From NCBI GenBank assembly GCA_001931535.1, contig CP016211.1, positions 4,375,573 through 4,439,572 of the forward strand: DNA of 64,000 bases, given 5' to 3'. The notes beneath the pieces were generated by a model. It worked only from the letters and a program-made list of their open reading frames with translations, was not told where the DNA came from and did not search any database. Made by a program: the position numbers and the translations under genes. The stretch's first letter is position 1, and every line of letters starts with the position of its first letter. Source of the stretch: Minicystis rosea. Lineage in GTDB: Bacteria; Myxococcota_A; Polyangia; Polyangiales; Polyangiaceae. Below are positions 1,938 through 59,116 of the stretch, piece after piece.

Positions 1938-1951
1938 GTGCAGGTTCGAGC

Positions 1952-4044: not shown

Positions 4045-4046
4045 GG

Positions 4047-5120: not shown

Positions 5121-5205
5121 GGTCCCGTCCCTGGTGCGCCCGGATCGCGGGCACACGTTGGCTGTGCGCGGTCAGGCCGCGCGCTCGGGCGGCGCGACGG
5201 CCGCG

Positions 5206-40957: not shown

Positions 40958-42601
40958 TCAAGGCGTCGCGAGCTTGAGGACGATCGAGCGCCCGCTACGC
41001 TCGATGCTCCCCACCAGCCGATCGGGGATCGTGGCACCCGTGATGTTGAGGTGCTCCCGCTTCAACAGCGCGGGCAGGGACAGCTCGACGCGTGCGGGCC
41101 CGATGTCGTGCAGTTGAATCGCCGCAGGGAGCAGGTGCGGATCGTCGACGACGACGACCACGAAGCGCCCTTCGGCCTGAAGCAGCCGCGCGGATTGATG
41201 ACCGATGGCCGTCACGCCCCCGAGCTTGAGCTTATGTGGGGCACTGCACGGCGTCTTCTCGGCCAGGGCACACTCGGCGGCTGCCCGTGAGGTCTTTTCG
41301 GGCAGCACCCCGAAGAACAGATGCCCCTCCGAAAGCGACACGCTCCCGAAGCGCGCGAACGTCGCGCTCCCCTTCGGGCGATCTCCCAACATGCGCAGCC
41401 GCTGCGAAAGCCTGATTCGAGGCACCTCGCTGACGAGCCAAGGCAATGCCACCAAGTACCCGGACCAACCCGCTTCGCGCACCCGATTCACGAGCATCGA
41501 CCCACCCTCGCGGCGCGGCTGATCCCCCGGAAATCCCCAAGCTTGCGAAAACGCCTCCGCGATGTCGACCGAGGCCGATGCGCCCGGCACCGTCATCGAC
41601 TTCGACGGGAGCCAAACCTCGTCCGGAGGCATGGGAAACGCAGCGCCGGTGTCGACGGTGAGGGTGATATCCATCTTCCCCGCGGCTTCGCCCGCGGACA
41701 CGTCGACGGTATCGAAGTAATTGCCTTTGGCCGAGCCCGCGAGCACGTGAGAGCGCGCCGATTCCCACATGCCTTGTGCGGCCAAGAGCCCGCGTTGATC
41801 GGGTGTGATCGGGGCGCCTTCGAGGGCCGCGACGGTGGTGGCGACGCCGTGCAAGAACCCGAGATCGGCGACGCCTGCCGGTGAATAGCGCACCCGCAGG
41901 GCACGTCCCGAGAGCGCCGGCGCCTCCCCACGTCCATCGCTCGTGGAGAGCTCGCGAAGCGCGGCGCGGCCTTGTTTTCCAATGGCCATGTCGACGACCA
42001 CGCCATCACCGTTCACACGCGTCACCACGTGTCGTTGTCCGTGCGTCCATGCGCTGCCATCGCTGCGAAAACCGAGCTCCTCCAGGGCTTTGACGATCAT
42101 GCGATGAAGCGCCTCCGCATCCCTGGCCGGCACGAGCGCGCGCAGCGCCACCGTGGGCGGCTCTCCGGCCACGGCGTCTCGCACCTGCTGCACTTGATCC
42201 GCAGTGAGCGGCTGGGACGAGTCCCCCGGATTGTTCGCCGGGATCAGCGGCCGGAGGGCCTCGATCGTGCGGCGCGCGGCAGGCGATGCGCCGGCGAGCG
42301 CGAACGTGATGGGACGCGAAGGATCGAGGACGGGCGTGAATCGCGCGAGCAAGCTCATCACTCCATCCATCGGGAGCTCGAGCACCTTCATGGGCGCGAG
42401 CCGCGCGAATACGCCGGTATCGATGCTTCCCGAAAGGACCGCTCCGCTCGGCAGCCCCACGACGGCGGGCGCAGGCGGCGGAGGCGGGGGCAGGCCCTCA
42501 CTCGCCGTGGCAATGGCAATCGAGGGTGGAGGCGGAGACGATCCGCCACATCCAACCATGGAGATGCCGAGCGCGAGCCATGCCATTCGACGAAAACGCA
42601 T
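40958..42601 (-). CDS. hypothetical lipoprotein
   Basis: ATG at 42601 (MRFRRMAWLALGISMVGCGG lipobox) followed by a Pro-rich linker; the N-terminal part of ORF ..42781 is discarded. Confidence 0.5.
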   Translation of the reverse strand: MRFRRMAWLALGISMVGCGGSSPPPPSIAIATASEGLPPPPPPAPAVVGLPSGAVLSGSIDTGVFARLAPMKVLELPMDGVMSLLARFTPVLDPSRPITFALAGASPAARRTIEALRPLIPANNPGDSSQPLTADQVQQVRDAVAGEPPTVALRALVPARDAEALHRMIVKALEELGFRSDGSAWTHGQRHVVTRVNGDGVVVDMAIGKQGRAALRELSTSDGRGEAPALSGRALRVRYSPAGVADLGFLHGVATTVAALEGAPITPDQRGLLAAQGMWESARSHVLAGSAKGNYFDTVDVSAGEAAGKMDITLTVDTGAAFPMPPDEVWLPSKSMTVPGASASVDIAEAFSQAWGFPGDQPRREGGSMLVNRVREAGWSGYLVALPWLVSEVPRIRLSQRLRMLGDRPKGSATFARFGSVSLSEGHLFFGVLPEKTSRAAAECALAEKTPCSAPHKLKLGGVTAIGHQSARLLQAEGRFVVVVVDDPHLLPAAIQLHDIGPARVELSLPALLKREHLNITGATIPDRLVGSIERSGRSIVLKLATP

Positions 42602-42815
42602 GCCTCGTTCTAGCCTCATCATCCCGAAATCCGCCAGGAATTTGGGCCGTGCGCAGCGCGACGAACGCGGCTCCGTCGCCACCGAGAGCGGCGCCGACAT
42701 TCGGCCGTGCACAGCCGAGCTTCGGGATGGACACGCAAGGTCCGATGCTCGAGAAGCGCGCTTGCCGCTCCGCACGAGCAAGCGTACCGCGGAGCTTCAC
42801 CTCAACATCGGAGTC

Positions 42816-43925
42816 ATGCTCATGAAGCTTCCTGTCTCCCTCACTGCGCTCGCCTTCCTCGCCATGGGCTGCGCCGGCACCGATCTCGGAACCGCGACGG
42901 AGAGTGTCACCTCCGACGACACAGCCGTCTTCGCCGTTCGCGCCGACACCAACACCTGTGCATTCCCTGCCTGCGGCGGCTACTACGTCTCACGCGTCAA
43001 TCGCACCACGACCACCTGTGCCGACGGCACCGACGCGGCCGAGTGCTACGTCGCCGAGCTCGACTTCTCCTCGGTCGGCCTCACGACCCAACAAGAGACG
43101 GATTTGCGCGCTTCGGTGACGACCTCGGCGCTCACGGTCTCTTCGCTCTTCCGCGGCAAGATCTTGAAGAGGAAGTTCGGCACGGCAGGCACGTTCGGCC
43201 GGCTCGCCATCACCGTGCCCTTCGTGTCCCCTGCGCCCGTGACGCTCGACAGCATGGTTTACAAGATGTCGACCATCGGCGGCAATTGCACCAACGAGAC
43301 CTGTCCGACGATCCGCGAGGTCGAGCTCAACACCAGCGTTGGCCGCCTCGTCTCCCACCTCGATCTCACCGGCACGCCCGGCACTGCCACCCAGAAGAAC
43401 GAGGCGCTCGTCGCTGCCTATTCGACGGATTCGATGCTCACCCTGGGCACGCAGGTCGGCGGCTCGACCGATCGTGTCTTCACCGCGACGAGCTATTTCA
43501 CGCCGGTGGATCCGGGCGAAACACTGTGCGGCACCGATTTCACCGACGAGCTCTCGGCGGTGACCGACGGCTTCCTTTGGATGAGCGAGTCGGACTATCC
43601 CGTCGATCCCGTGATGTTCCCCGGCGAAGGCTCGGCCGCGCCCACCGCGGAGCAAGTCCGCGCGCTCGTCGGCTTGCCCGCGGGCACATCCGTGGACGAG
43701 CGCTCGATGGTCGTCTTCCAGTGGGCCGGACGCAACGATCTCGGCATGGCCCCCGAAGAGACCGCGCTCGCCATGCGCTATCGTGCTCTGCGCAAGGTCC
43801 TCGAGCACAACCTGACCGATCTTCGTTTCTACTATTACGGCACCATCCAAGTGCAGGTCTACATCGTGGGCCGCACACGCTGTGGTGATCTCGCGGGCAT
43901 GCACACCGTCTCCATCGAGACCTGA
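42816..43925 (+). CDS. hypothetical lipoprotein
   Basis: ATG at 42816 after GGAG; lipobox LAFLAMGCAG; 369 aa. Confidence 0.5.
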   Translation: MLMKLPVSLTALAFLAMGCAGTDLGTATESVTSDDTAVFAVRADTNTCAFPACGGYYVSRVNRTTTTCADGTDAAECYVAELDFSSVGLTTQQETDLRASVTTSALTVSSLFRGKILKRKFGTAGTFGRLAITVPFVSPAPVTLDSMVYKMSTIGGNCTNETCPTIREVELNTSVGRLVSHLDLTGTPGTATQKNEALVAAYSTDSMLTLGTQVGGSTDRVFTATSYFTPVDPGETLCGTDFTDELSAVTDGFLWMSESDYPVDPVMFPGEGSAAPTAEQVRALVGLPAGTSVDERSMVVFQWAGRNDLGMAPEETALAMRYRALRKVLEHNLTDLRFYYYGTIQVQVYIVGRTRCGDLAGMHTVSIET

Positions 43926-45899: not shown

Positions 45900-47219
45900 T
45901 CAACGCACGCAGCGCACTCGGTTTCGCGCGCTCACCACGGTCTCGGCCGTCCGTCCGGTGGAGAAGTGCACCGCCCACGCCGCGCCCGGGCCCGCGTTCG
46001 TGCCCGACCAAAACACGTCGATGGCGGAGGTGGGGAAGCTCTCCGGATCGAGCGGTGGATCCATGGTGGTGACTTGCACGAGGCTCTTCAGCTCGTCGGC
46101 GGTAGGCAGTCGATAACCGCCGCCGACGCGCAGACAATGGGAGCGCGCCGATGACCAATCCATCGCCGAGGAAGCCGGGCGTCGCTGCCACGTGAGCTTC
46201 TTCTCGCTATCGACGAGCGTGTCGGCCGAGAGCGTGAAGCGATCCGGAGGCGGTGGCCCGCCGCGCCCGCGGCCGAGACCGAAAGCGATGATCAAGACGA
46301 TGACCGTGACCATGCCAATGGCCACACCTGCCATCGGCGAGAGGGTGCGCTTCACGCCCGGGCTCGCAGGTGTCGCGGCCGAGGGCTGCGCAAAGGGCGC
46401 GAGCGCGGCGGAGAGCGCGGCGACGTTGGCGTAACGCTTGTGCGGGTCTTTCTCCAGACAGCGGAGGATCACCGCTTCGAGCCCAGCTGGGATTTCCGGT
46501 CGATGCTGGCGCGGAGGCAACGGATCGCGCGCCAACACGAACGCGAGCACGTTGCCCACGCTGTCGGCGTGAAAGGGTGTGCGCCCCGTGAGAAGCTCGT
46601 AGAGCGTGACGCCGAGCGACCACACGTCCGTGCGCGCGTCCACGTCACCGGCCGATCGCATCTGCTCGGGAGACATGTATTCGGCGGATCCCATCCCCGT
46701 GTGCGCCTCGGTGATGCGCGTGTCCTCGCTCAGCTTGGAGATGCCGAAATCGAGCACCTTGATCACGGGCTCGCCGGTGCGCTTCTTCGCGAGGAACAGG
46801 TTCGCCGGCTTGACGTCGCGGTGAATGATGCCGAGCGCGTGGGCCTCGGCGATCCCTTGGCACGCCTCGCGGACGTAGCCCACGGCCTCGGCGAGCGCGA
46901 GCTGCCGCCGGCGCACGAGGGCCGCGAGATCGCAGCCGTCGAGCAGCTCCATGACGATGAACGGCGTCCCGTCGTCGAGCGTCTCCACGTCGAGCACGCG
47001 CGCGACGTTCTGGCCCTCCATGCGGCTCGCGGCGCGCGCCTCGCGGAGGAAGCGCTCGATCACCTCGGGCTGCTGCGGCGACCCCGGCTTGAGGAGCTTG
47101 ATGGCCACGCGCTGCTGGAGCGTCAGGTGCGTGGCCGCGTGGACGACCGCCATCCCGCCCTGGCCGAGCTGCTCCTCCAAGCGGTATTTCTGGCGGAGGA
47201 TGTCGCCGGGCGCAGCCAT
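45900..47219 (-). CDS. Ser/Thr protein kinase with TM helix and extracellular DUF1566 (Lcl C-terminal) domain
   Basis: Kinase subdomain motifs GQGGMAVV, VAIKLL, HRDVKPANLF and DFGISK; TM helix AGVAIGMVTVIVLIIAFGL. The C-terminal TWQRRP...WSSARSHC...GGYRLPTADELKSL matches DUF1566. Confidence 0.8.
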   Translation of the reverse strand: MAAPGDILRQKYRLEEQLGQGGMAVVHAATHLTLQQRVAIKLLKPGSPQQPEVIERFLREARAASRMEGQNVARVLDVETLDDGTPFIVMELLDGCDLAALVRRRQLALAEAVGYVREACQGIAEAHALGIIHRDVKPANLFLAKKRTGEPVIKVLDFGISKLSEDTRITEAHTGMGSAEYMSPEQMRSAGDVDARTDVWSLGVTLYELLTGRTPFHADSVGNVLAFVLARDPLPPRQHRPEIPAGLEAVILRCLEKDPHKRYANVAALSAALAPFAQPSAATPASPGVKRTLSPMAGVAIGMVTVIVLIIAFGLGRGRGGPPPPDRFTLSADTLVDSEKKLTWQRRPASSAMDWSSARSHCLRVGGGYRLPTADELKSLVQVTTMDPPLDPESFPTSAIDVFWSGTNAGPGAAWAVHFSTGRTAETVVSARNRVRCVR

Positions 47220-47677
47220 CACGCCCCCTCGGCGCGGACCATCCGCTGGGCTTCGAGAATGAGCGTTCGGCGCGTCGTCGGCATTTGCGATCGCCGACGA
47301 TAGCGGGGCCCGGTCCGGCTGTCTCCGGGCTCGCGCACGCGGCTTCCGGCGGGGCCGTCATACCGCGTCCGGCGGCTCCGGATCCCGACCTACAGCGAAC
47401 GCTCCGTCCCAATGCACGGGGACGTGGAGGGGCGTGGCGAGCGCGCCCGGATGAGCCTGTGATCTCCAGAGGATTCGTCATCCCCTCCCAGGGCCTTCAC
47501 GGGTCTTTCCCTCCCCGGTGATTGGGTATCATCCCGACCCGGGCGACTGGCACGTTCGCCAGCCTTCGTCATCTTGTCGGGACTGACATCCTCGCGACGC
47601 TGTCCGCGTGTTTCATGCGGGAGCGCCCGCGGCGAAATTCAACCTCAGGCGGCACCGCAACAGCGAGAGGTCAACGC

Positions 47678-48154
47678 ATGGGCCTGATCCAAGAAGTGGC
47701 CAGGACGGACCGGCCAATCCTCGGAAACGACATTCCCATTCTCGTGTTCCGTGTCTTTCGTCACTTCTCGGCGGGCTACGTCGAGGAGGTGCTCGGGCGG
47801 GGCGCGGCCGTCGTCTTCCAAAATGGTGGGCGCGATCTCGGCCGAGAGGCGGGGACGATGCTCTACAAGCCCGATCCGACCGAGTATCTCCGGGAAGTGT
47901 GCCAATTCGTCCGGGACTCTCGCATCGGGATCCTCCAGCCTCGCGAGGTGAGCGACAAATTGCTGGTCGTCGATCTCGACGAGTGCATCACCTGCGCTGG
48001 AATGGCAAACATCGGCAAACGAATCTGCCAATTCGAGGTCGGGTTCGTGGCCGGGGTCGCCGAGGTGCTCGTGAAGAAGAAGCCGAAGGCGTACGAGACC
48101 AAGTGCAACGCCAACGGTGAGAATACCTGTCAGGTGACCGTGGAGCTCGGCTGA
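47678..48154 (+). CDS. V4R (4-vinyl reductase) domain protein
   Basis: ATG at 47678 after GAGAGG; conserved Cys pair (CITCAGM...C) typical of V4R. Confidence 0.6.
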   Translation: MGLIQEVARTDRPILGNDIPILVFRVFRHFSAGYVEEVLGRGAAVVFQNGGRDLGREAGTMLYKPDPTEYLREVCQFVRDSRIGILQPREVSDKLLVVDLDECITCAGMANIGKRICQFEVGFVAGVAEVLVKKKPKAYETKCNANGENTCQVTVELG

Positions 48155-48174
48155 GCTCGGCAGGGGGGAAGAAC

Positions 48175-48549
48175 GTGGCCAGCACGAATCGTATCGAGAG
48201 GATCCAGGACGTACTGCGCTCCCTCCGAGCCGTGTCGCCCGACATCATCGGATCGGCGATGGTGAGCACCGACGGCTTCATCATCGCCTCGCTGCTCCCG
48301 GCGGAGGTGGATGAAGAGCTGGTGAGCGGCATGGCCGCGGCGCTGCTCGGCGTGGGCGAGCGCATCGCCGGTGAGCTCATGGGTGGGTCGATGGAGCAGA
48401 CCTATGTGCGAGGTCGCCTCGGCTATGTCATCCTTCATGCGGTCGGGCAGGAGGCGCTCCTCATCGTCCTCACCACGCCGGACGCGAAGCTCGGGCTCGT
48501 GTTCCTGGACGTGAAACGAAGGGTGCAGGAGCTGACGAAGATCCTTTGA
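48175..48549 (+). CDS. Roadblock/LC7 (MglB-like) domain protein
   Basis: 124 aa; GAMVSTDGFIIAS...ALLIVLT pattern; GTG start 20 nt after the V4R stop. Confidence 0.7.
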   Translation: MASTNRIERIQDVLRSLRAVSPDIIGSAMVSTDGFIIASLLPAEVDEELVSGMAAALLGVGERIAGELMGGSMEQTYVRGRLGYVILHAVGQEALLIVLTTPDAKLGLVFLDVKRRVQELTKIL

Positions 48550-48837
48550 CGGATCCTGGCAGGATGGTGAAAAGCGTCGCGAGCGCACCAAAGCTAGGGA
48601 GCGCGACCGAGGAATCCTCGTGGATTTCGAGGGAGCCCGACCGACGATTCGAGGCGCACCGCAGCGTTTCAGCATCCTGCTAGGCTCGAAAGGCCACCTG
48701 CTCTCACCAAGGTCGATGGACGGCGCCGCGCGCGGGCGGCAGGCGGAGTCGCGTCTCCGACCGCTCGCGGTGCCGCTTCACGGCGAGAGCGCTCGTCGGG
48801 GGACGAGGCGCGCCCGTACGAGGAGGAGCGTTAGGAT

Positions 48838-49422
48838 ATGCACGCCCGCGTCGCATCAGGGGTCTTCCTGGCGCTCGGCTTCGCCGATCTGGCGCTGTTG
48901 AATCTGCTCTTGGCCCCACGGCTCGCGGCCGAGAGGGCGCTCGCCGACAAGGCTTCTCCACAAGAGATCTCCGCGCCGGTCGAGCCGCCGCGAGCTCCCG
49001 CCCAAGCGGTGACGGTGGTCAAACCACCTTCGAGCCCGCCGCCGTCGTCGACGGCGACCATCGCCGCCAATGCCCACGCGGGGCAGAGCGAGGCCGCGCC
49101 CGACGTGCTGTTCAGCCTGGAATCGGAGCGGATCACGAGCTTCGACGCGGCCATGGCGCTGGATCGCGTGGCGCGCGAGCTGCGCGCCGATCCCAAGCGC
49201 CGCGTGCTCCTCCGCGGGCACACCGATCGACTCGGCACCTCCTCGTTCAACGTGGTTCTCAGCCGCCGACGGGCCGAGTCGGTGCGTCACTTTCTCATCG
49301 CGCACGGCGCCCCGGGGGAGCGCATCGACATCGAGTCAGTGGGCGACACCGAGCCGGCCGACCCCGGCGACGGCTTCATGGCATGGGCGAAGAACCGCCG
49401 CGTGCAGGTCATCTGGCGATAA
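48838..49422 (+). CDS. OmpA-family peptidoglycan-binding protein
   Basis: C-terminal OmpA-like box LLRGHTDRLGTSSFNVVLSRRRAESVRHFL; RBS GAGGAGGAG. Confidence 0.75.
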   Translation: MHARVASGVFLALGFADLALLNLLLAPRLAAERALADKASPQEISAPVEPPRAPAQAVTVVKPPSSPPPSSTATIAANAHAGQSEAAPDVLFSLESERITSFDAAMALDRVARELRADPKRRVLLRGHTDRLGTSSFNVVLSRRRAESVRHFLIAHGAPGERIDIESVGDTEPADPGDGFMAWAKNRRVQVIWR

Positions 49423-49434
49423 CGGGACGACGCA

Positions 49435-51024
49435 ATGGATATCGTGCCTTCGATCTGCCTCTCGTCGCTGGCGGGAGCGATCTTCTTTTTCACGGGCGGC
49501 CGGCTCTCGGCGCGCGGGTCGCAATCGACCTCCGGTGGGGAGCTCGCGGCGGAGCGGGAAGCGCGCACGCGCGCCGAAGAAGAAATGGCGCGCTCGGCCA
49601 CGGCGCGCGACGAGGCGACGCGGGCGCGCGACGAAGCCGCCCGCTCACGCGACGAAGCCACACGCGCGCGCGATGAGGCGACGCGGGCGCTCGCGGCGGA
49701 GCAGGGACGCGCCATGGCGCAGGCGCGCGCGATCGAGAACGAGCGCGCCTCGCGAGCGCAGGAGGCACAGCACGCGGCCGCGGAGATCGCGCGGCTCGGT
49801 GAAGAGGGCACGCGCCTCCGCGCGCACGCCGCGAGCCTCGCGCAGCAGATCACGGAGATGCAAGCGCGCCTCGTCGCCGGAGCGAGCGAAGCCCGCGCGC
49901 AGATGAGGTCGGCACCCGACGATGGGCGCGCTGCGGCCGCCGAGAAGCGCGCGACCACGCTCTCGGCCGATCTCGAGAAGGCCCGCGGCGAGCTCGCACG
50001 AGCAATCGACGCGAAGAATCGGCTCGACACCGAGATCACCGATCTGAAAGCCCGGCTCGCGCAGCGCGGGAACGGCGCCGACGAAGCACGTCGCGAGGCC
50101 GAGGCGCAGGCCACGCGACGCGTGGCGGAGATGCAGAAGGAGATCGAGCAAGCGCGGAGCGAACGCGCGGCCACACGCTCGCAGCTCGATCAGACGCGCA
50201 CGCAACTGAACCAGGCGCGCACGGCGCTCACCGCCGCCGAGACGCGCGCCACCGCGGCGGAAGCGCGCGCGACCGCCGCGGAGAAACGCGTGGCCGACGC
50301 GGAGAAGCACGCGGCCGAAGCGGAGAAGCACGCGGCCGACGCGGATCGATTGCGCGCCGAGAACGCTCAGCTGCGCGCCGAAAAGGCCGCGACGCCGAGC
50401 CCGGGAGGCGATCTCGCGGAGCTGCAGCGACGCGGCCTCGAGCTGACCATGAGGACGCGCGTGATCGAGCAGCGCACCGGCGAGCTCGAGCGCGCCAATG
50501 CCGAGAACCACGAGCTGCGCACCCGCGTCGAGGCGCTCACCGAGGCCGCGCGCGAGGCGGACGAGCTGCGCCGCCGCGTGGCCGAGCTCGAGGCGATGGG
50601 CTTCGCCAAGCGCCTCGAAGAGCCGCCGCCGCCGAGCCGTCCGCCGCCCGAAGGCGCGCGCCTCTCCACGGTGCTCGAGCGCGAGCTCGATCGGCTCGTG
50701 AGCCGCGAAGAAGGCTGCCGCATGGCGGTGCTCGCCGACCCGCGCGGGCTCTTGATCGCCGCCTCGGCAGGCGCGTCGTATCCGCACGAGGTCGCGGCCG
50801 CGTCGTCGCTCACCACCACCACCTCCGATCGGCTGCGCGAGCTGATGCCGCTCGGCGCGCCCGCGAGCCTCGAGCTCTACGACGAGAACGGGCTCTGCAT
50901 GCGGACGCGATGGATCCGCTTCGAGAAGGAATGGTTCTTGGTGAGCACGGTGGGCATGGTGGATCCGCAGGACACGGAGGCCGCGGATCTGCGCTCGCGG
51001 CTCGGAGAGCTCATCGGCCGCTGA
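49435..51024 (+). CDS. long coiled-coil protein with C-terminal Roadblock/LC7-like domain
   Basis: About 330 aa of heptad-like Ala/Arg/Glu-rich coiled coil, then RMAVLADPRGLLIAASAG...LVSTVGMVDP. Confidence 0.55.
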   Translation: MDIVPSICLSSLAGAIFFFTGGRLSARGSQSTSGGELAAEREARTRAEEEMARSATARDEATRARDEAARSRDEATRARDEATRALAAEQGRAMAQARAIENERASRAQEAQHAAAEIARLGEEGTRLRAHAASLAQQITEMQARLVAGASEARAQMRSAPDDGRAAAAEKRATTLSADLEKARGELARAIDAKNRLDTEITDLKARLAQRGNGADEARREAEAQATRRVAEMQKEIEQARSERAATRSQLDQTRTQLNQARTALTAAETRATAAEARATAAEKRVADAEKHAAEAEKHAADADRLRAENAQLRAEKAATPSPGGDLAELQRRGLELTMRTRVIEQRTGELERANAENHELRTRVEALTEAAREADELRRRVAELEAMGFAKRLEEPPPPSRPPPEGARLSTVLERELDRLVSREEGCRMAVLADPRGLLIAASAGASYPHEVAAASSLTTTTSDRLRELMPLGAPASLELYDENGLCMRTRWIRFEKEWFLVSTVGMVDPQDTEAADLRSRLGELIGR

Positions 51025-51044
51025 CGGACGATCGCGGGGGGATC

Positions 51045-52151
51045 ATGGATCACGAGCTCGCAACCAACGACGAGACGAAGGGCTGGGACGCGGCCACGGA
51101 TCGCGAGAGCGGATTCACCCCGATCGCGGGGCGCTATCCGGGCAGCGCGGTGCTCGACGAAGCGGGCCTCGGCGTCGTCCTCTTCGATCCCGGCGGGGAG
51201 ATCGCGGCCAGCAACGCCACCGCCGAGGAGCTCCTCGGCCGCCGCGTGGATCGGACGACGCTGCTCCGTCAGGTGCTCGAGCGAGCGCACGCCGGCGGCC
51301 CCAGCGAAGGCGAGCACGACGAGCAGCAGCTCGTCGAGGTCGAGGCCGCCGGCGGCCGGCGCGGCGTCGTTGGCTACCGCGTGGTGCGATCCCCGCGGCT
51401 CGGCACGATCTTCACGCTGCGCGACATCACCGAGCTGGAGCGCACGCGCGCCGAGCGGCGAGCGCTCGAGCGGCTCTCGCAGGTCGGGCGCGCCTGCGCC
51501 ATGGTGGCGCACGAGATCGGCAATCCCCTCGCGGCGCTCAAAGCCACGTTGCAATCGATCGAGCGCGAGGCCGCCGCCGCGGGGCTCGGCGACACCATCG
51601 CCGCCGTGTTCCGCGAGATCGATCGGCTCGACAACATCCTCGGCCAGCTCCTCGGGTTCGTGCGTCACCGCATGCCGCGGCGCGTGCGCACCGATCTCTC
51701 GGTCGTGATCGCGCGCGCCCGCGAGGCGACGCGCGATCGCCTGCAGCACATCTCCTTCCACGCGCCGCGCGGCCCGCTCCCGGACGTCCACTGCGATCCG
51801 GATCAGATGGAGCAGGTCTTCTTGAACCTCTTCCTCAACGCTGCCGAAGCGATGGGCCATCGCGGCGAGATCCGCGTGCGCGCCGGCGCCTCCTCCACGC
51901 ACCTCTGGATCCGCGTGGAGGACTCGGGCCCGGGCGTGCCCGCGGGGCTCCGCGAAAAGGTCTTCGAGTCCTTCTTCACCACCCGGACCACGGGCGTCGG
52001 CCTCGGCCTCCCCGTGTGCCTCCGGATCATGAGCGATCACCACGGATCCATCTCCATCGAAGATCGCGAGGGAGGCAAAGGCGCGAGCGTGCGCCTGTCC
52101 CTGCCCTTCGGTACGGTCACCGGGCGCCGGCCGCGAGAGGAGCGGAAATGA
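51045..52151 (+). CDS. sensor histidine kinase (PAS-HisKA-HATPase_c), cytoplasmic
   Basis: H-box MVAHEIGNPLAAL; N and G boxes NLFLNAAEAM, DSGPGV and GVGLGL. Confidence 0.8.
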   Translation: MDHELATNDETKGWDAATDRESGFTPIAGRYPGSAVLDEAGLGVVLFDPGGEIAASNATAEELLGRRVDRTTLLRQVLERAHAGGPSEGEHDEQQLVEVEAAGGRRGVVGYRVVRSPRLGTIFTLRDITELERTRAERRALERLSQVGRACAMVAHEIGNPLAALKATLQSIEREAAAAGLGDTIAAVFREIDRLDNILGQLLGFVRHRMPRRVRTDLSVVIARAREATRDRLQHISFHAPRGPLPDVHCDPDQMEQVFLNLFLNAAEAMGHRGEIRVRAGASSTHLWIRVEDSGPGVPAGLREKVFESFFTTRTTGVGLGLPVCLRIMSDHHGSISIEDREGGKGASVRLSLPFGTVTGRRPREERK

Positions 52152-53233
52152 CACCACGAAGGCCGAAGGTGCTGATCGTCGACGACGAGGACAACATCGT
52201 CCTCGCGCTGCACCGCGTGCTCTACCAGGACAACGTCCGCTACGACGTGCTCCTGGCGCGGTCGGCCGAGATCGCCCAGCAGATCTTGGAGGACACGCGC
52301 ATCGACGTGCTCGTCACCGACGTGCACCTGCCCGAAAAGAGCGGGATGGATCTCTTGAGCTGGGTGGCGGTGCAGACGCCGAGCACCCGCGTGATCGTGA
52401 TGACCGCGTTCGACGTGCTCCGCATCAAGGATCGCGCGCATGCCTTCGGCTGCCTGCGCCTCGTGCGCAAGCCCTTCGACGTGCACGAGATGCGGGCCGC
52501 CATCATCAGCGCCCTCGGGGTGCGCGACACCTTCAAGGGTCACCTCTCCGAGCTGTCCTGCGTCGACGTGATCCAGATGCTCTGCATTGCGCGCAAGACC
52601 ACGGCGCTCCGGCTGTCCGAGGGCGAGAGCGCCGGTGTCATCCACATCGAGAACGGCGAGATCGTGCACGCGGTGTGGGACGACATCGTCGGCGAAGAGG
52701 CCTTCTTCCGCATGCTCGCGGTGAAGAACGGGCTCTTCAACACCGGGCCTCTGCCGCCGGAGATCGAGCGGACCATCCGCGGCGATTGGCAATATCTCCT
52801 CATCGAAGGCCTCCGCCGGCTCGACGAGGCCGCCGCCGGCATCTCCGAGCCCGAGCGCCCCTCGGTACGCCCCGCACCGCCGCCCGAAACGAGCAACGAG
52901 ACGACCACGCCCTTCTCGCGCCCGCGGCCTGTGGAGCGCGAGAGCACCACGGTCACCCTCGCGCGCTCCACCATGGGATCGATGCTGAGCGGCCCCGCCA
53001 GCACGCCGGCGCCGAGCTCGTCACCACGCAGCCCCGAGGTCACGCGACTCATCGACGAAGGCTTCAGCGCCCTCCGGGACCGCCGCCGTGACGACGCCCG
53101 GCGCGCCTGGGAGGCCGCGCTCCGGCTCGATCCCGGCAATCGCATGATCGAGCTCAACCTCCGCAAATTGGGTGTGGAGGTCCCGCCGCCGCCGCACTCG
53201 GGCCGAGGCTCCGGAGAGCTCGAGACCGGCTGA
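52148..53233 (+). CDS. response regulator: REC domain + DUF4388 domain + Pro-rich tail
   Basis: REC motif KVLIVDDEDNIV...DVLVTDVHLP...VIVMTA; the start ATGA overlaps the histidine-kinase stop; GHLSELSCVDVIQML matches DUF4388. Confidence 0.75.
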   Translation: MTPRRPKVLIVDDEDNIVLALHRVLYQDNVRYDVLLARSAEIAQQILEDTRIDVLVTDVHLPEKSGMDLLSWVAVQTPSTRVIVMTAFDVLRIKDRAHAFGCLRLVRKPFDVHEMRAAIISALGVRDTFKGHLSELSCVDVIQMLCIARKTTALRLSEGESAGVIHIENGEIVHAVWDDIVGEEAFFRMLAVKNGLFNTGPLPPEIERTIRGDWQYLLIEGLRRLDEAAAGISEPERPSVRPAPPPETSNETTTPFSRPRPVERESTTVTLARSTMGSMLSGPASTPAPSSSPRSPEVTRLIDEGFSALRDRRRDDARRAWEAALRLDPGNRMIELNLRKLGVEVPPPPHSGRGSGELETG

Positions 53234-53238
53234 CGCCC

Positions 53239-53473
53239 CGCAAAGCCCTCTCGGCCTCCATCCGGGACATCCCCTCTCCCTCTTCGCAAAGCCATCTCGG
53301 TCTCCATCCCGGACATCGCCTCTCCTCGTTCGCAAAAGCCACCTCGCCCTCCATCCGGGACATCCCCTCTCCCTCTTCGCAAAGCCATCTCGGTCTCCAT
53401 CCGGGACATCTCATCTCCTCGCGCCCAAGCCATCTCGCCATCCACTCCGGACAGCGCCCATCGCGCAAAAGCT
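53239..53473. repeat. ~46-bp tandem repeat, about 5 copies (CGCAAAGCCATCTCGGTCTCCATCCGGGACATCCCCTCTCCCTCTT)
   Basis: Read directly, immediately after the response-regulator stop and ~120 bp upstream of the flavoprotein-membrane fusion gene. Confidence 0.85.
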
Positions 53474-53589
53474 TCGTTGTGCGCCTGGACCGAACACCGC
53501 TCCTGGCGCGTGAGGTTGTAATCGGTATTATTGGCAATGTTGGCCTGACTCGTCATTTCGGGAGAGCCAAGGGCCGGGCGGGGGGCGCC

Positions 53590-56500
53590 ATGGTCGACCT
53601 CGGTGAACGACAGACCCTGGTGGTCATCGGCAATGGCATGACCAGCCACGCGCTCTGCCGCAGGCTCGCGGAGTGCGGGGTCACACGCGGTGAGCTCGAG
53701 GTCGTGGTCTTCGGCGAAGAGCCGCGGCCCGCGTACGATCGCGTGCACCTCACGGATCTCCTCGGCGGCAAGACCGAGGCCGATCTCTCGCTTGCCCCGC
53801 GCTCCTGGTACGAAGATCGCGCCATCACGCTCCACCTCGGCGATCCCGTGGTGGAGATCGATCGCGACGAGTGCCTCGTGCGCTCCGCGTCCGGCGCCAC
53901 CGTGCTCTTCGATCGGCTCGTCTTCGCTACGGGATCACGGCCGTTCATCCCGCCCATCCCGGGCGTCGATCTGCCGGGCGTCTTCGTCTATCGCACCGTC
54001 ACCGATCTCCACGCCATCCTCGCGCATGCGTCGTCCGCCAAGCGCGCCGCGGTGATCGGCGGCGGCCTGCTCGGGTTGGAGGCCGCGCGCGCGGTGCACG
54101 CCCTGGGGCTCGAGGTGCACATCATCGAGGCCCATCCAGGGCTGATGTCGCGCCAACTCGACGCCACGGGCGCGCGCCTCCTCGGCGAGCGCGTCGAGAC
54201 GCTCGGCGTGCGCGTGAAGACGGGCGCGCGCACCGCGCGCATCGACGCCGGCAAGTCCGCGAGCGCCGCCTCCAAGCGGATCCTCCGTTTCGAAGACGGC
54301 TCCACACTCGAGGTCGATCTCGTGATCTTCGCCGCCGGCGTTCGCCCTCGCACCGAGCTCGGCGTCGCCTGCGGGCTCCTCACGGCGCCGAGCGGCGGGC
54401 TCCTCGTCGACGATCGCCTCACCACCTCCGATCCACGCATCTTCGCGGTCGGCGAGTGCGCCACGCATCGAGGCATCACCTATGGCCTGGCCGCGCCCGG
54501 CTATCAGATGGTCGACGTGCTCGTGAACAACATCGGCGGCGGGGACGCCACGTTCACGGGCGCGAGCCAGTCGACCCGCTTGAAGCTGCTCGGCGTGCAC
54601 GTCGCCTCGCTCGGTCGGCCCGATGAAAAGAGCACGCCGGGCGCGACCACGCATACGTACCTCGCCGGGGGCGCCTATCGAAAGCTGGTGATCGCCGATG
54701 GCCACATCATCGGTGCCATCGCGATCGGTGAATGGGAAGATCTGGTGCGCATCGAGGACGCGCTCGCCGAGCCGCGCCGCGTCTCGTTCTGGGATCTGCG
54801 CCGCTTTCGCAGCACGGGCAGCCTCTTTCTCAAATCGGAGTCGCCGCCCGTGCACGAGTGGCCGGCGGAAGCGCTCGTGTGCGGCTGCCTCGGCGTGCGG
54901 CGCGGCGCGCTCAGCGATGCGGAGATCAAAGGCTGCTCCACCGTCGAAGCCATGTCGGCCCACACCGGCGCTGGCACCATGTGCGGCTCCTGCAAACCGC
55001 TCCTCGCGGATTACCTCCGTCGCGAGCGCGCCGATTCTCTCCCTGCCTCTCAGCTCCTGCGGCTCGCCCCGCCGCGCGTGCCGACCTTCGACGGCGTCGC
55101 TCCTTCGAGCAAGGCGCGCCCCGCCTCGGCCGCGCCCCTGCCTTCCAAGCCCACCCCCGCGCCCATCCCTGCGGCGCCCACGCCGCCGAGCACAGCCGGC
55201 GTCGCCGCGCCCAAAGGACGCAAGAGCTCGAATGCACCCTCGCGCAAAGCGCGTCACAACTCGGGAGCTCCGTCGCGCCAGGCAAAGGCCCTATCGAACA
55301 TTCCGCCGCGCCGAACGACGGCCCCTTCGCAAGCTCCGCTTCCTGCACCCAAGGACAAGACCCTTTCCGTTGCTCCCCTGCCCAAAGCGAAGACCAGCTC
55401 GGCGCCTCCGAGCACGGCGCGGTCCGAGCCGACCGCCGCGCCTCGCAATGCACCTTCGCACGCGGCCTCTCCGGCGAGCGTGGCAAAGCCCCCTGCGGTC
55501 GCGGCCCCGCGCGATGCAGAGCCCCTTTCGGTTGCACCTCCGAGCACCGCACGCTCCGAGCCCGCCGCGTCGTCCAACAAGGCTCGTCCCGTTGCCCCAC
55601 CGGCGCCGCGAATCGAGACCGCGGTTGCCCGACGCGAGGCCAAGCCTGACTCCGTAACTCCGCCCAGCACCGCTCGTCCGGGAGCGCCCCTTTGCTCGGC
55701 GCGCCGCGATTCCGCCGCTCCACCGAGCACCGCGCGTCCCGGCTCGGCTGCGCCGCGGTGCGCTTCATCCAACGAGCTTGTCGAGCAACGATGCTCGCTG
55801 CGCGCCGATTCGATTGTTCCTCCGTGCGCCGCCCATGTCGACGAAGTGAATCAACCCCGATCCACCCCCGCGGCGAGTGACGATCGCGGGGAGGACTCGC
55901 CGCCGACGCTGCGCTGCAATGACGAGGGGAATGGAGCCGTGATCGAGCCGGCCGCGCCTGAAGCGCCGACGTCCGATGATGAGGATCCTCTCTCGATTCC
56001 GGCGCTCGCACCGCCGCAGGCCGCGGAGCCCGCAAAGCCGCCCGCGCCTTCCCCGCCTCCACCACCGGACTCGACGCCCGGCGAAGGCCCTCTCTCCGTG
56101 CGCTCGCCGCGTGCCGGACGCGTGCGCCCGCGGCGTCGTCAGGCTTTCGATACGCTGCAGAGCACACCGCCCATCGGCGCGGTCACCGCGCGCGAGGCAG
56201 CGTCGATCCGCCTCGATGCGCCGTCCAAACGCACCCTCACCGCCGCGCTTCCATCCATCGCGGCCCATTTGAGCGCCGCCCGCGCCGAGCGTGCACCGAT
56301 CTCGGTCGCACCCGCGTCCACCATCTCGACACGACAAGAGTCCTCGACGCGGCTGCGACCTTCGATTGCAGAGCAGGGGCCCGTCTCGGAGGCGCAGCGC
56401 GCCAAAGCACCTTCGATCGTTCCACCGCCCAAACCACCTTCGCTCGTTCCACCACCCAAACCACCTTCGATCGTCCCACCGCCCAAACCACCTTCGATCA

Positions 56501-57210
56501 TTCCCCCGCCGCTCAGCGTCCGTGGTCCCGACTCGAATGCACGCGGCGTCGACAGCGCGCCTCCGTCGACGCGACGCGGATCGATGCCACCGCTCCGCCC
56601 CCTCTCCGTGCCTCCGGGGCGGCTCCCTTCGATTCCACCACCGCGCCTCTCGCTCGCGCCCATGGCGCCCGCCCAGCGCGCCGAGGAGCGCCGCCGGCAG
56701 GCGTTGCTCGGATCGGCGGCGAGCGCGTTCGCGGGCGTGTTGATGCTCCTCCTCGCGCCGTCCCTCGGCCCCGCGCGCTCGTTCCTCGGCTTTCATCTGG
56801 ACGCGCTCATCGTCGATCGCATCGTCCGCCAAGCGAGCGGTTATGCCGTGCTCGTCCTCTCGCTCTTGGGGCTCTTCCTTTCGATTCGCAAGCGCGTTCC
56901 GCGCCTCGCTTCCCGCGACATCCCCGGCGCGCGCGCGTTCCATGGAGTCGTCGGCGCGGCGGCGATCGCGTTCCTCTTCCTCCACACCGGCCTGCACCTC
57001 GGCGTGCGCTTGAATCGACTGCTCATGCTCGACTTCCTCGCGCTCTCCGCGCTCGGCGCGGTTGCGGGCCTCTTCGCCGCCGTCATCGGCAACGGTGATC
57101 CGGCCGCTGCGCAGGCGCGGAGGCTCTTCGTCTTCCGCGTGCACGTCATCCTCTTTCTCCCCTTCCCCATCCTGGTCGCCCTGCACGTGCTCGGCGCCTA
57201 CTACTTTTGA
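53590..57210 (+). CDS. NirB-like FAD/NAD(P)H oxidoreductase + BFD-like [2Fe-2S] domain, ~560-aa Pro/Ala-rich disordered linker, C-terminal ferric-reductase-like bis-heme-b transmembrane domain
   Basis: N-terminus VVIGNGMTSHA, AAVIGGGLLGLEAA and AVGECA (class-II pyridine-nucleotide disulfide oxidoreductase fold). BFD box CGCLGVRRGALSDAEIKGCSTVEAMSAHTGAGTMCGSCKPLL. Linker repeats KPPSIVPPP x4 and PPSTARSEP. C-terminal TM helices carry FHGVVGAAAIAFLFLH (H-x13-H) and VHVILFLPFPILVALH (H-x13-H). Confidence 0.75.
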   Translation: MVDLGERQTLVVIGNGMTSHALCRRLAECGVTRGELEVVVFGEEPRPAYDRVHLTDLLGGKTEADLSLAPRSWYEDRAITLHLGDPVVEIDRDECLVRSASGATVLFDRLVFATGSRPFIPPIPGVDLPGVFVYRTVTDLHAILAHASSAKRAAVIGGGLLGLEAARAVHALGLEVHIIEAHPGLMSRQLDATGARLLGERVETLGVRVKTGARTARIDAGKSASAASKRILRFEDGSTLEVDLVIFAAGVRPRTELGVACGLLTAPSGGLLVDDRLTTSDPRIFAVGECATHRGITYGLAAPGYQMVDVLVNNIGGGDATFTGASQSTRLKLLGVHVASLGRPDEKSTPGATTHTYLAGGAYRKLVIADGHIIGAIAIGEWEDLVRIEDALAEPRRVSFWDLRRFRSTGSLFLKSESPPVHEWPAEALVCGCLGVRRGALSDAEIKGCSTVEAMSAHTGAGTMCGSCKPLLADYLRRERADSLPASQLLRLAPPRVPTFDGVAPSSKARPASAAPLPSKPTPAPIPAAPTPPSTAGVAAPKGRKSSNAPSRKARHNSGAPSRQAKALSNIPPRRTTAPSQAPLPAPKDKTLSVAPLPKAKTSSAPPSTARSEPTAAPRNAPSHAASPASVAKPPAVAAPRDAEPLSVAPPSTARSEPAASSNKARPVAPPAPRIETAVARREAKPDSVTPPSTARPGAPLCSARRDSAAPPSTARPGSAAPRCASSNELVEQRCSLRADSIVPPCAAHVDEVNQPRSTPAASDDRGEDSPPTLRCNDEGNGAVIEPAAPEAPTSDDEDPLSIPALAPPQAAEPAKPPAPSPPPPPDSTPGEGPLSVRSPRAGRVRPRRRQAFDTLQSTPPIGAVTAREAASIRLDAPSKRTLTAALPSIAAHLSAARAERAPISVAPASTISTRQESSTRLRPSIAEQGPVSEAQRAKAPSIVPPPKPPSLVPPPKPPSIVPPPKPPSIIPPPLSVRGPDSNARGVDSAPPSTRRGSMPPLRPLSVPPGRLPSIPPPRLSLAPMAPAQRAEERRRQALLGSAASAFAGVLMLLLAPSLGPARSFLGFHLDALIVDRIVRQASGYAVLVLSLLGLFLSIRKRVPRLASRDIPGARAFHGVVGAAAIAFLFLHTGLHLGVRLNRLLMLDFLALSALGAVAGLFAAVIGNGDPAAAQARRLFVFRVHVILFLPFPILVALHVLGAYYF

Positions 57211-57212
57211 TC

Positions 57213-58544
57213 ATGGGCGCACGGCGTACGCTCCTCGTCGGATCGCTGGTCACCGCCGCGCTCGGTGCCTATCACGGCGCACCTCTGGTGCTCGCCGGCG
57301 CCGACAAGCGCGACCATCTTCCGGGCCGCACGTCACGCGGACACGAAGCCTTCGAGTCCGCCTGCGCCACGTGTCACACACCCTTTCGCGGCGTGACCAA
57401 CGATGCTTGCAAACGCTGTCACGAAGAGGGGCTCGCGGCCGCCGAAGACTCGCACCCCGAGAGCAAGTTCACCGATCCACGCAACGCGACCCGCGTCGCC
57501 GCGCTGGATGCGCGCGCCTGCGTGACCTGTCATCGCGAGCACGTGCCCGATCGCACGAACGCAGGCGTCACGCTCCCCGCCGATTTCTGCGGCGCGTGCC
57601 ACCAAGACATCCGCCACGAGCGAGCGAGCCACGCGAGCTTCTCGTTCGAGGGTTGCGCGCGCGCCGGCTGTCATCGCTTCCACGACAACCGTGGTCTCTA
57701 CGAAGGCTTCCTCGCCAAGCACCAGCACGAGCCCGAGAACCTGCCCAAGGCCGTCGTTCTCCTCGTCACGCGCACGGCGGCCGCAGGCAAGGCGCTCACC
57801 GTCGCCGATGCGGACGCACCGCCTGCTTCTCGCACCGAAGCGGTGATGCATGCTTGGTCGACCACCGCGCACGCGCGTGGAGGCGTGGGGTGCAAAGCCT
57901 GTCACGACGTGCGCGACGCCGCGACGGGGACGCGTGCTTGGAAGGATCATCCCGGCACCGCGTCCTGCGAAGGTTGCCACGGCGGCGAGCACGCGAGCTT
58001 CCTCCGCGGCCAGCACGGCGTGCGCACGGCCGTGGGCCTCTCGCCGCTCACACCGGCCATGGCCCGTCTCCCCATGAAACCCGAGGCGCGCGGCCGCACG
58101 CTCGATTGCGAGTCTTGCCACGGCGCGCACGCGTACGACACCGCGCGCGCCGCCGCCGATGCCTGCCTCGGATGCCACGACGATCGCCACAGCCGCGGCT
58201 GGGCGACGACGCGACACGCGCTCGCCTTTCGTCGCGAGCAGAGCGGCGCCGCCGCGCCGGGGACGGGGGTTTCCTGCGCCACCTGTCACTTGCCCCGCGT
58301 GGCGCGACGCGCGCACGGCACCGACGAAGTGAGCGCGAGCCACGACGTGAGCGCGGCGCTCCGCCCGCGCGACAAGATGCTGCGGGCCGTGTGCGTGCGT
58401 TGTCACGGCCTCGGCTTCGCCATCGACGCGCTCGCCGACGGCGATCTCGTGCAACGCAACTTCAACGGCCGCCCAGCGGTGCACGTCGAGAGCCTGGAGA
58501 TGGTCGAGCGCCGCGCGCACGAAGATCAGGGAGGTGGGGGATGA
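57213..58544 (+). CDS. multiheme c-type cytochrome (10 CxxCH + 1 CX4CH)
   Basis: Heme motifs CATCH, CKRCH, CVTCH, CGACH, CARAGCH, CKACH, CEGCH, CESCH, CLGCH, CATCH and CVRCH. The N-terminal TM/signal is LLVGSLVTAALGA. ATG at 57213 follows the upstream stop. Confidence 0.85.
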   Translation: MGARRTLLVGSLVTAALGAYHGAPLVLAGADKRDHLPGRTSRGHEAFESACATCHTPFRGVTNDACKRCHEEGLAAAEDSHPESKFTDPRNATRVAALDARACVTCHREHVPDRTNAGVTLPADFCGACHQDIRHERASHASFSFEGCARAGCHRFHDNRGLYEGFLAKHQHEPENLPKAVVLLVTRTAAAGKALTVADADAPPASRTEAVMHAWSTTAHARGGVGCKACHDVRDAATGTRAWKDHPGTASCEGCHGGEHASFLRGQHGVRTAVGLSPLTPAMARLPMKPEARGRTLDCESCHGAHAYDTARAAADACLGCHDDRHSRGWATTRHALAFRREQSGAAAPGTGVSCATCHLPRVARRAHGTDEVSASHDVSAALRPRDKMLRAVCVRCHGLGFAIDALADGDLVQRNFNGRPAVHVESLEMVERRAHEDQGGGG

Positions 58545-59116
58545 CCATGACGACGCGTTTCCTGTCGAAGCTCCTCCCGGCCGCGGCGCTCGTCGCCGCC
58601 GCCGGATGCGGTAAATCCGAGCCCCATGGAGGCATCGCCCCGCAGACGATGGCCGACGGCCTCTATGCGGTCATGTCCGCCGATCGCGCCGTCTACACGC
58701 GTGAGGTCGTGGCCCGTTTGCAAGACGACGAGGGCGTGATCAAAGCCAGCGAGCACTTCAAGGACGACAAGGCCCTTCCGCTGCCCGCCCAGATGTTCCG
58801 CATGGGCGCGGAGACGGCGCGCAAACAATCTCCCGGCTTCACCTATGCGCTGCTCTCGCAATGGCCCATCAACAAACAGAACCTGCCTCGCACCGAGATC
58901 GAAAAGACCGGCCTCCGCCGCGTGGCCGAGACCGGCAACCCCTTTTACGGCGAGGAGACGCTGGCCGGCACGCGCTACTTCACCGCCGTCTACGCGGATC
59001 GCGCGGTGTCGACGGCGTGCGCCAACTGCCACAACGGCCATCGCGACAGCCCGAGGCACGATTTCAAGCAAGGCGACACGTTGGGTGGCGTGGTGATCCG
59101 CATCGCGCTCAAGTGA
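58541..59116 (+). CDS. DUF3365-like monoheme lipoprotein
   Basis: ATGA overlap with the cytochrome stop; lipobox LVAAAGCG; single CANCH near the C-terminus. Confidence 0.6.
   Translation: MTMTTRFLSKLLPAAALVAAAGCGKSEPHGGIAPQTMADGLYAVMSADRAVYTREVVARLQDDEGVIKASEHFKDDKALPLPAQMFRMGAETARKQSPGFTYALLSQWPINKQNLPRTEIEKTGLRRVAETGNPFYGEETLAGTRYFTAVYADRAVSTACANCHNGHRDSPRHDFKQGDTLGGVVIRIALK

Follow-up and report, generated by a model that had tools for sequence, protein, structure and literature searches.

What is understood of Roadblock/LC7 proteins in prokaryotes concerns almost exclusively their regulation of MglA-type GTPases, as in the MglA/MglB switch of Myxococcus xanthus and Thermus thermophilus, and nearly half of these proteins are orphans. 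Described systems that share features with the locus treated here also include the Streptomyces conservons, the Ragulator/LAMTOR complex together with the Asgard Roadblock proteins, and the PATAN regulators PatA, PixG and PixE. The locus itself is a block of six genes at positions 47678-53233 of a 64,000-nucleotide stretch of the Minicystis rosea genome (contig CP016211.1, positions 4,375,573 to 4,439,572; hereafter the window). It encodes a V4R protein, two Roadblock domains, an OmpA-like protein, a histidine kinase and a response regulator. Together the six genes make up a conserved signalling module, organised like an operon, that is found in the Polyangia, a group of soil myxobacteria. We tentatively read the module as a GTPase-independent, membrane-tethered V4R/Roadblock scaffold for redox signalling, a mechanism that we infer and to which we would grant slightly less than an even chance.

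An earlier note on this DNA had presented V4R proteins as classical partners of MglA and the block as an MglB-like module without its GTPase. The first point does not fit the literature well, and a Roadblock gene with no GTPase next to it is not in itself out of the ordinary. In a large survey of prokaryotic MglA and MglB proteins, 328 of 749 MglB homologues (44%) are orphans and V4R is not mentioned at all (PMC4316618), and neighbourhoods combining PATAN and MglB genes had already been noted by Makarova et al. in 2006, as cited in that survey. The genes of the block, and the kinase gene that diverges from it, are as follows.

47678..48154, plus strand: V4R protein, 158 aa, predicted cytoplasmic (Pfam V4R, E 2.6e-13)
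48175..48549, plus strand: small Roadblock/LC7 protein, 124 aa (Pfam Robl_LC7, E 1.5e-12)
48838..49422, plus strand: protein of 194 aa with a transmembrane (TM) helix, a Pro-rich linker and an OmpA_C domain, a MotB/Pal-like candidate anchor (Pfam OmpA, E 2.7e-15)
49435..51024, plus strand: TM-coiled-coil-Roadblock protein, 529 aa (whole protein without a significant Pfam match)
50662..51021, plus strand: Roadblock-fold C-terminal domain of the coiled-coil protein, residues ~410-529 (family profiles; AlphaFold 2 (AF2) model and Foldseek)
51042..52151, plus strand: soluble histidine kinase, 369 aa (Pfam HisKA, E 7.6e-9; HATPase_c, E 3.7e-23; weak PAS)
52145..53233, plus strand: REC-PATAN(DUF4388)-TPR response regulator (Pfam Response_reg, E 2.5e-18; DUF4388, E 7.9e-20; weak TPR)
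45900..47222, minus strand: Ser/Thr kinase (Pfam Pkinase and Lcl_C), divergent from the block

Because the G+C content of the window (~70%) fills raw lists of open reading frames (ORFs) with shadow frames, genes were picked by their codon-position G+C. All six genes of the block lie on the plus strand and are separated by spacers of 12-20 nt or overlap, except that 288 nt separate the Roadblock gene from the OmpA-like gene. A hydrophobic N-terminal helix is present in the OmpA-like and coiled-coil proteins only, the other four block proteins being without one. A scan of the block for promoters and terminators returned signals no commoner than chance, and an Rfam scan of the window gave no match. 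The six domain calls made earlier (V4R, Roadblock, OmpA, coiled-coil-Roadblock, kinase and REC-DUF4388) all hold, the second Roadblock through family profiles and fold and the others through Pfam.

Compared with the MglA/MglB switch, the module shares the Roadblock/LC7 fold, a myxobacterial host and an interface with response regulators, but it has no MglA-family GTPase in cis and is thus not "coupled" in the sense of Wuichet and Søgaard-Andersen. Its small Roadblock is only distantly MglB-like, with no specific affinity for MglB, and its partners are instead a V4R protein, an OmpA anchor and a TM-coiled-coil-Roadblock protein, with relatives in hydrogenase operons. The conservon (kinase CvnA, Roadblock CvnB, DUF742 protein CvnC and GTPase CvnD) likewise joins a kinase and a Roadblock protein in one operon, contains a Roadblock, CvnB5, that resembles the one here, and forms a membrane-associated complex. 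Unlike it, the module has neither a DUF742 match nor a GTPase, its kinase is soluble (no TM segment) and optional, and it has a response regulator where the conservon has none. Ragulator and the Asgard Roadblock proteins offer the concept of a membrane-tethered platform of several Roadblock domains, and LAMTOR2/3 are the best structural matches of the module's second domain. However, Ragulator docks Rag GTPases, which themselves bear Roadblock domains, and is held by lipidated LAMTOR1, whereas the module lacks a GTPase and has a TM helix plus coiled coil as its tether. Finally, the PATAN regulators also fuse REC to PATAN (DUF4388) and act by protein contact, but the order here, REC and then PATAN, is the reverse of that in PatA, a TPR-like tail follows, and the context is neither chemotaxis-like nor that of a pilus cluster.

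Conservation of the six-gene block

We gathered 69 related loci by looking up gene contexts and by scanning a genome collection with the small Roadblock as seed; the tallies below cover 67 of them. The window is closest to a Minicystis sp. metagenome-assembled genome (MAG), in which an M14 peptidase gene, the Ser/Thr kinase gene, the six genes, the flavoprotein gene and the cytochrome genes are all collinear with the window. The same six genes stand between unrelated flanks in L007, L010, L013-L021 and L069; the hosts of blocks with different flanks include, besides L007, Polyangium fumosum, P. jinanense, further strains of Polyangium, a Sandaracinus-labelled MAG and numerous MAGs of the Polyangiaceae. 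A 2.7-kb contig of Byssovorax cruenta (L009) holds the first three genes only. In the closest metagenomic relatives, L004-L006 (e.g. L004 10001-13995), the kinase gene is absent and the rest is intact, with V4R 94% and Roadblock 95-96% identical to the window's; in L008 the kinase match is shortened or fragmented.

Across the sampled loci a V4R-like gene is nearly always present (56/58), and in 20 of 60 informative loci it lies directly upstream of the Roadblock gene, as it does in the window. An OmpA-like gene follows the Roadblock gene in 48/63 loci and a coiled-coil-Roadblock gene does so in 42/57. All 41 fully flanked loci have a REC-PATAN gene (27), a Ser/Thr kinase gene (22) or both within ~6 kb; the histidine kinase, found in 11 of these 41, is dispensable in some relatives. 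The position of the divergent Ser/Thr kinase gene is kept in L004-L006 and L069, and this enzyme is a possible alternative signalling partner. Two module loci came from each of four MAGs, so that several paralogous modules can share a genome. A variant order (Roadblock, OmpA, a short Roadblock protein, then V4R) occurs in L059-L062, near genes for a Ser/Thr kinase and for a multihaem cytochrome. There a protein of ~208 aa (L060 10955-11581; also in L059, L061 and L062) replaces the long coiled-coil protein, and its C-terminus passes the Pfam cut-off for Robl_LC7.

The ratio dN/dS, computed against one close and one distant orthologous block, came out as follows.

V4R protein: close 0.017, distant 0.076 (lowest of the six)
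Small Roadblock: close 0.10, distant 0.12
Response regulator: close 0.13, distant 0.20
Histidine kinase: close 0.33, distant 0.24
OmpA-like protein: close 0.33, distant 0.32
Coiled-coil protein: close 0.31, distant 0.44

All six genes are thus under purifying selection, with V4R and the small Roadblock the most constrained. Taken with the recurrent gene order amid unrelated flanks, these values (0.02-0.44) argue that the block is a selected unit with V4R and Roadblock at its heart. They also bear on the deflationary account, that the genes are neighbours by chance or what is left of a decaying hydrogenase operon and no longer serve a function. The missing kinase gene in L004-L006 and the absence of a hydrogenase from the window speak for such an account, but an order conserved across genera with different flanks, and selection on every one of the six genes, make it barely credible.

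Roadblock domains and the search for a GTPase

The small Roadblock protein is 53-96% identical over the 67 loci. A profile built from it matched PDB chains of Asgard Roadblock proteins at E 1e-26, CvnB5 (3leq) at E 7e-9 and MglB at E 2e-3, and the label "MglB-like" given to the module by the earlier note is therefore too specific.

The coiled-coil protein begins with a TM helix (residues 3-21) and continues with a coiled coil of ~370 aa (residues ~31-400) in which 54% of residues are Ala, Arg or Glu. Tandem repeats of 21 nt at 49602-49690 and 50176-50345 encode its heptads (e.g. ARDEATR and AAEKHAA), and its last segment is modelled by AF2 as a single long helix. An exact-sequence look-up of the protein returned no record, and the 125 C-terminal residues gave no matches when searched for homologues by themselves, while the full-length query retrieved orthologues (P0121-P0134). 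These are conserved at both termini, vary in length in the middle and measure 365-667 aa overall.

The C-terminus of this protein is, at the level of fold, a divergent Roadblock domain, an assignment to which the AF2 model contributes. On its own, the window's last 129 residues score 17 bits against Pfam Robl_LC7, under the gathering cut-off of 23 (E 0.005), so that the earlier Roadblock assignments stand in profile searches for the small protein individually and for the second domain only as a family. When 19 members of that family were gathered from the related loci, 11 of them matched Robl_LC7 (best E 1.9e-5) and 4 matched LAMTOR5 in Pfam. The top five PDB matches of the family profile were all Roadblock/MglB chains (E 0.009-0.06), and hhalign placed the domain in register with the small Roadblock family over 80 columns (E 0.0064). 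An AF2 model made from 12 orthologues (mean pLDDT 72; domain 60-78) shows a long helix followed by alpha-beta-beta-alpha-beta-beta-beta-alpha. Its Foldseek matches in PDB were almost all LAMTOR2/3 (MP1-p14), Asgard Roadblock, MglB, MglC and dynein LC7/Roadblock; the E-values began at 7.5e-5, and the target TM-scores were 0.55-0.66.

The earlier note had reported no P-loop GTPase near the block and had asked whether a small one might hide in an alternative frame within 47.2-53.3 kb. The observation is borne out by every search that we made. The Walker-A pattern GxxxxGK[ST] does not occur in any frame of that interval, and of the three instances in the whole window, two fall in genes that do not encode NTPases (one for a UbiE-type methyltransferase, the other for a CDGSH protein) and one in a shadow-frame ORF (10993-11256). 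With an MglA query validated against PDB entries for MglA (429 bits), tblastn found no match either in the 64 kb or among the related loci that were fetched. Ten alternative-frame ORFs had no Pfam match, and Pfam over essentially all genes of the window returned no Ras-like GTPase, phosphoenolpyruvate carboxykinase being the sole GTP-using enzyme. The six-frame Walker-A scan, the MglA search and the two Pfam searches were thus all negative, and we reject a hidden GTPase. Within ±10 kb of the module, MglA was found in 0/67 loci, and the 66 related loci with the small Roadblock gene have no Ras-like GTPase at that range. The P-loop ORFs of the related loci are of ABC, MutS2-like, PhoH-like and AAA type, as judged by Walker-A context, and none is conserved with the module.

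Alternatively, the GTPase could act in trans, with both Roadblock domains serving as regulators, of the GTPase-activating or nucleotide-exchange type, of a distant MglA/SofG GTPase and the module as a whole working as a switch for polarity or localisation. Roadblock proteins are established partners of the MglA family, and MglB and MglC are among the Foldseek matches of the second domain, MglC, whose crystal structure is the one matched, being an orphan Roadblock that acts in the MglA circuit. Some MglA genes also lie near PATAN genes (PMC4316618). Nevertheless, we consider this arrangement unlikely. Neither MglA nor a small P-loop ORF accompanies the module in the sampled loci, its small Roadblock is far nearer to a non-MglB Roadblock (E 1e-26) than to MglB (E 2e-3), and a genome may carry several paralogous modules. 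Moreover, the conserved neighbours are V4R, hydrogenase and ferredoxin-like proteins rather than motility genes. Of the two options that the earlier note had left standing, a GTPase elsewhere or a GTPase-independent Roadblock unit for signalling or scaffolding, the evidence favours the second.

V4R, hydrogenase-linked relatives and the proposed scaffold

The V4R protein belongs to its Pfam family (PF02830) with 50.3 bits over a cut-off of 31, and we retrieved 184 homologues at 55-95% identity. Its best named relative in NCBIfam is the V4R part of MsvR, a redox regulator of methanogens (E 3.9e-15), and five cysteines (C103, C106, C117, C143 and C151) are invariant in the alignment of homologues. 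In MsvR, the conserved V4R cysteines govern redox-dependent behaviour (PMC3729527), and folds of the V4R/TRAPPC3 type bind zinc through cysteines and contain ligand cavities (PMC10933270). By analogy, the V4R protein may be a redox sensor acting through a cysteine or metal site. It differs from MsvR in having no DNA-binding domain. Solitary homologues at 62-80% identity occur in L001 (10001-11280), L002 and L003 (10001-10474), with a rhomboid gene adjoining in L001 and L002.

In the relatives, the block has a hydrogenase-linked sister form. There, a V4R-like gene and the Roadblock gene enclose the genes for the small and large subunits of a [NiFe]-hydrogenase and for a 2x[4Fe-4S] ferredoxin-like protein, which stand immediately upstream of the Roadblock gene (seen among L022-L057, L063-L065 and L067; e.g. 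L023 6410-13000 and L041 5342-13460). The trio takes this place in 34 of 60 informative loci. The small Roadblock of these loci is 54-71% identical to the window's. The large subunit carries the motifs RICGTCPHAHH and DPCLSCSTH and matches MvhA (E 1e-118) and, in NCBIfam, VhuA/VhuG, with Pfam in agreement; the hydrogenase is thus of group 3c (Mvh/Vhu-like). Ahead of the trio stands a gene of 150-163 aa whose small V4R-like product has no Pfam match and whose homology to the window's V4R rests on hhalign (93%, E 3e-7). The C-terminal half of the ferredoxin-like protein bears a weak likeness to V4R (E 0.004), for which we claim no V4R identity. The gene for the maturation protease HycI usually lies downstream, and a REC-PATAN gene or Ser/Thr kinase genes lie upstream. 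The window thus has the hydrogenase-less form of this wider V4R/Roadblock cluster; HydS and HydL have no match anywhere in its 64 kb. Searches of the literature (hydrogenase/Roadblock/V4R; Myxococcota group 3c) returned no account of a hydrogenase-linked V4R/Roadblock cluster or of the six-gene block.

That the core sits in a hydrogenase operon in most relatives points to redox sensing rather than to control of cell polarity. Coupling of a [NiFe]-hydrogenase to a kinase and regulator at the genetic level is also the logic of the H2-sensing HoxBC-HoxJ-HoxA system, but the relatives' enzyme is of group 3c and comes with a maturation protease, in contrast to the group 2b HoxBC sensor, and the window has no hydrogenase. 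Some loci consist of V4R, HydSL, Fer4, Roadblock and HycI without an OmpA or coiled-coil gene, which ties Roadblock and V4R to the enzyme itself. The same loci bear on a further possibility, that the module is a structural tether whose anchors and small Roadblock position a soluble redox enzyme at the membrane or cell wall (the hydrogenase in relatives, perhaps the NirB-like/cytochrome system here) while kinase and regulator only tune it. The presence of membrane and peptidoglycan anchors, the location inside hydrogenase operons with HycI next, and a Ragulator-like architecture suggestive of a docking platform all suit such a tether. It is at odds, however, with hydrogenase loci that have Roadblock and V4R but neither anchor, with the full block in Polyangium and L007, where no redox enzyme adjoins, and with the kinase or regulator found in every complete locus, and we rate it as quite unlikely.

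The anchor and signalling proteins fill out the architecture. The OmpA-like protein has a hydrophobic stretch at residues 8-26 (Kyte-Doolittle (KD) value 2.08) and matches Pal-, YiaD- and MotB-type domains of NCBIfam, all under the family cut-offs, so that its membership holds at the level of the domain only. From the charges that flank the TM helices, its OmpA_C domain is predicted to be periplasmic, and the coiled coil with its C-terminal domain cytoplasmic. The kinase ORF is open from 50910, but its likely start is at 51042, past the point where the preceding gene stops; the resulting protein has 369 aa, close to the 367 aa of the Minicystis orthologue. The kinase has no hydrophobic segment and resembles AtoS/ZraS at the domain level in NCBIfam. 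The regulator gene, whose start overlaps the kinase stop by 7 nt, encodes REC (9-120), PATAN/DUF4388 (131-229), a linker and one TPR-like repeat (303-332), with no DNA-binding domain. Its REC domain is closest to NtrC/AtoC-type receivers in NCBIfam, and the phospho-acceptor pocket is intact in the translation (DD in KVLIVDDED, Asp in VLVTDVHLP, Thr in VIVMTAF and Lys in VRKPF). An AtoS-like kinase next to an AtoC/NtrC-like receiver looks like a cognate pair.

Given PATAN and TPR and the lack of a DNA-binding domain, the output of the regulator is probably a protein contact, as with the PATAN regulators of Synechocystis. One candidate for the receiving end is a type IV pilus or gliding apparatus, where REC-PATAN would contact a pilus or secretion ATPase in the manner of PixG and PixH in Synechocystis and the Roadblock/V4R pair would modulate it. 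PATAN regulators do bind PilB1/PilC in that organism (10.1101/2021.06.11.447907), and PATAN proteins have been linked to social motility in Myxococcus xanthus (10.1101/2021.06.11.447907; 10.1101/2024.03.11.584430). No pilus, secretion or gliding gene occurs in the window or the inspected loci, however, the order is REC-PATAN rather than PATAN-REC, and a Ser/Thr kinase replaces the PATAN regulator in many relatives, which together make a pilus or gliding role improbable.

Physical contacts, redox sensing through V4R, topology in the membrane and the kind of output are all matters of inference, and we would sketch the redox-signalling scaffold as follows. The cytoplasmic, cysteine-rich V4R sensor and the small Roadblock would form the core. 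The TM-coiled-coil protein would hold this core at the inner membrane through its cytoplasmic second Roadblock domain, a pairing with the small Roadblock being expected from the way Roadblock domains act as dimers (compare the MglB dimers and LAMTOR2/3). The MotB/Pal-like TM-OmpA_C protein may fix the assembly to peptidoglycan. The cysteine or metal site of V4R would sense the state of redox or of an electron carrier and pass it to the kinase and regulator on the Roadblock platform, with no dedicated GTPase. Phospho-signalling would run through the soluble PAS histidine kinase and the REC-PATAN-TPR regulator, with a Ser/Thr kinase possibly taking this role in other lineages, and the output would be protein-protein contact through PATAN/TPR rather than transcription. 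A bolder version sees in the module a bacterial, Ragulator-like scaffold without any GTPase, whose fuller form signals the H2/ferredoxin state of a cytosolic group-3c hydrogenase to Ser/Thr kinases or PATAN regulators, the window being the same chassis with another input; we think it rather doubtful.

Several points weigh against the redox-signalling scaffold. The window has no hydrogenase, and the V4R of its clade shares no more than ~26% identity with the V4R of the hydrogenase type. The window-type V4R is also found alone (L001-L003). L003, moreover, comes from the same MAG as the hydrogenase-type cluster L037, which marks the window-type V4R as a separate paralogue, able to occur apart from the module. 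Other V4R domains bind phenolics (PoxR/DmpR) or lipids (TRAPPC3). The AF2 confidence for the second Roadblock domain is moderate, and Polyangia presumably encode GTPases of the MglA/SofG type elsewhere in the genome. Lastly, since two peptide motifs of the small Roadblock served to sample the loci, the tallies apply to that subfamily alone.

Neighbouring redox genes and wider meaning

Downstream of the block lie genes for a NirB-like flavoprotein, a decahaem cytochrome c and a Tll0287-like protein. The flavoprotein (53479-57210) has Pyr_redox_2, Rubredoxin_C and BFD [2Fe-2S] domains and matches TIGR02374 at E 6e-137. It extends into a Pro/Ala/Ser-rich low-complexity linker of ~550 aa and a C-terminal segment with several TM helices and histidines, so that its ORF measures 1243 aa against 872-921 aa in relatives. 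At 57207-59116 follow the decahaem cytochrome (10 CXXCH) and then the Tll0287-like putative lipoprotein with one CXXCH-type motif. The three proteins look like an electron-transfer conduit. In the spacer between the regulator and NirB-like genes (53239-53450), a 46-bp tandem unit is present in 4.6 copies (alternatively 93 bp x 2.3); this unit is absent from the rest of the window and from all 69 related loci.

Control of these cytochrome genes by the block, as the earlier note had proposed, is doubtful. The adjacency is confined to the Minicystis-like clade (the window, L004-L006, L008 and L069) and is absent in Polyangium and L007, whose flanks differ, which leads us to reject such control as a general feature. 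With a regulator that has no DNA-binding domain, direct transcriptional control is unlikely. A functional redox link between block and cytochrome genes is possible and would fit the hydrogenase and cytochrome neighbours found elsewhere.

Farther away, a cluster at 195-5156 encodes by Pfam a thiamine-pyrophosphate enzyme, a chorismate-binding enzyme, a UbiE-type methyltransferase and a polyprenyl synthetase; it looks like a pathway for menaquinone or another isoprenoid quinone and would add redox-related context to the window. An angiotensin-converting-enzyme-like M2 peptidase gene (62771-64000, cut by the window end) and a gene for a protein with DUF6748 and a NuiA nuclease-inhibitor-like part (42204-43925) seem unrelated.

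Neighbourhoods of Roadblock and PATAN genes are a known kind; new are the conserved architecture described here, so far undescribed, and its hydrogenase-linked sister form. For the study of Roadblock proteins that lack a GTPase, the module is a concrete test case, since its partners other than GTPases are conserved and defined with unusual clarity. V4R is the ancestor of TRAPP and Roadblock a relative of Ragulator and the longins; their eukaryotic descendants work with GTPases, and here the two occur together in bacteria with none adjoining. For the window alone the importance of the finding is moderate. It would be greater if a GTPase-free scaffold and its coupling to hydrogenase prove true, for the route from hydrogenase to kinase would then be one not described before. 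In either case, the link to group-3c hydrogenases in the relatives suggests a new wiring of hydrogen or redox state into signalling in abundant soil myxobacteria.

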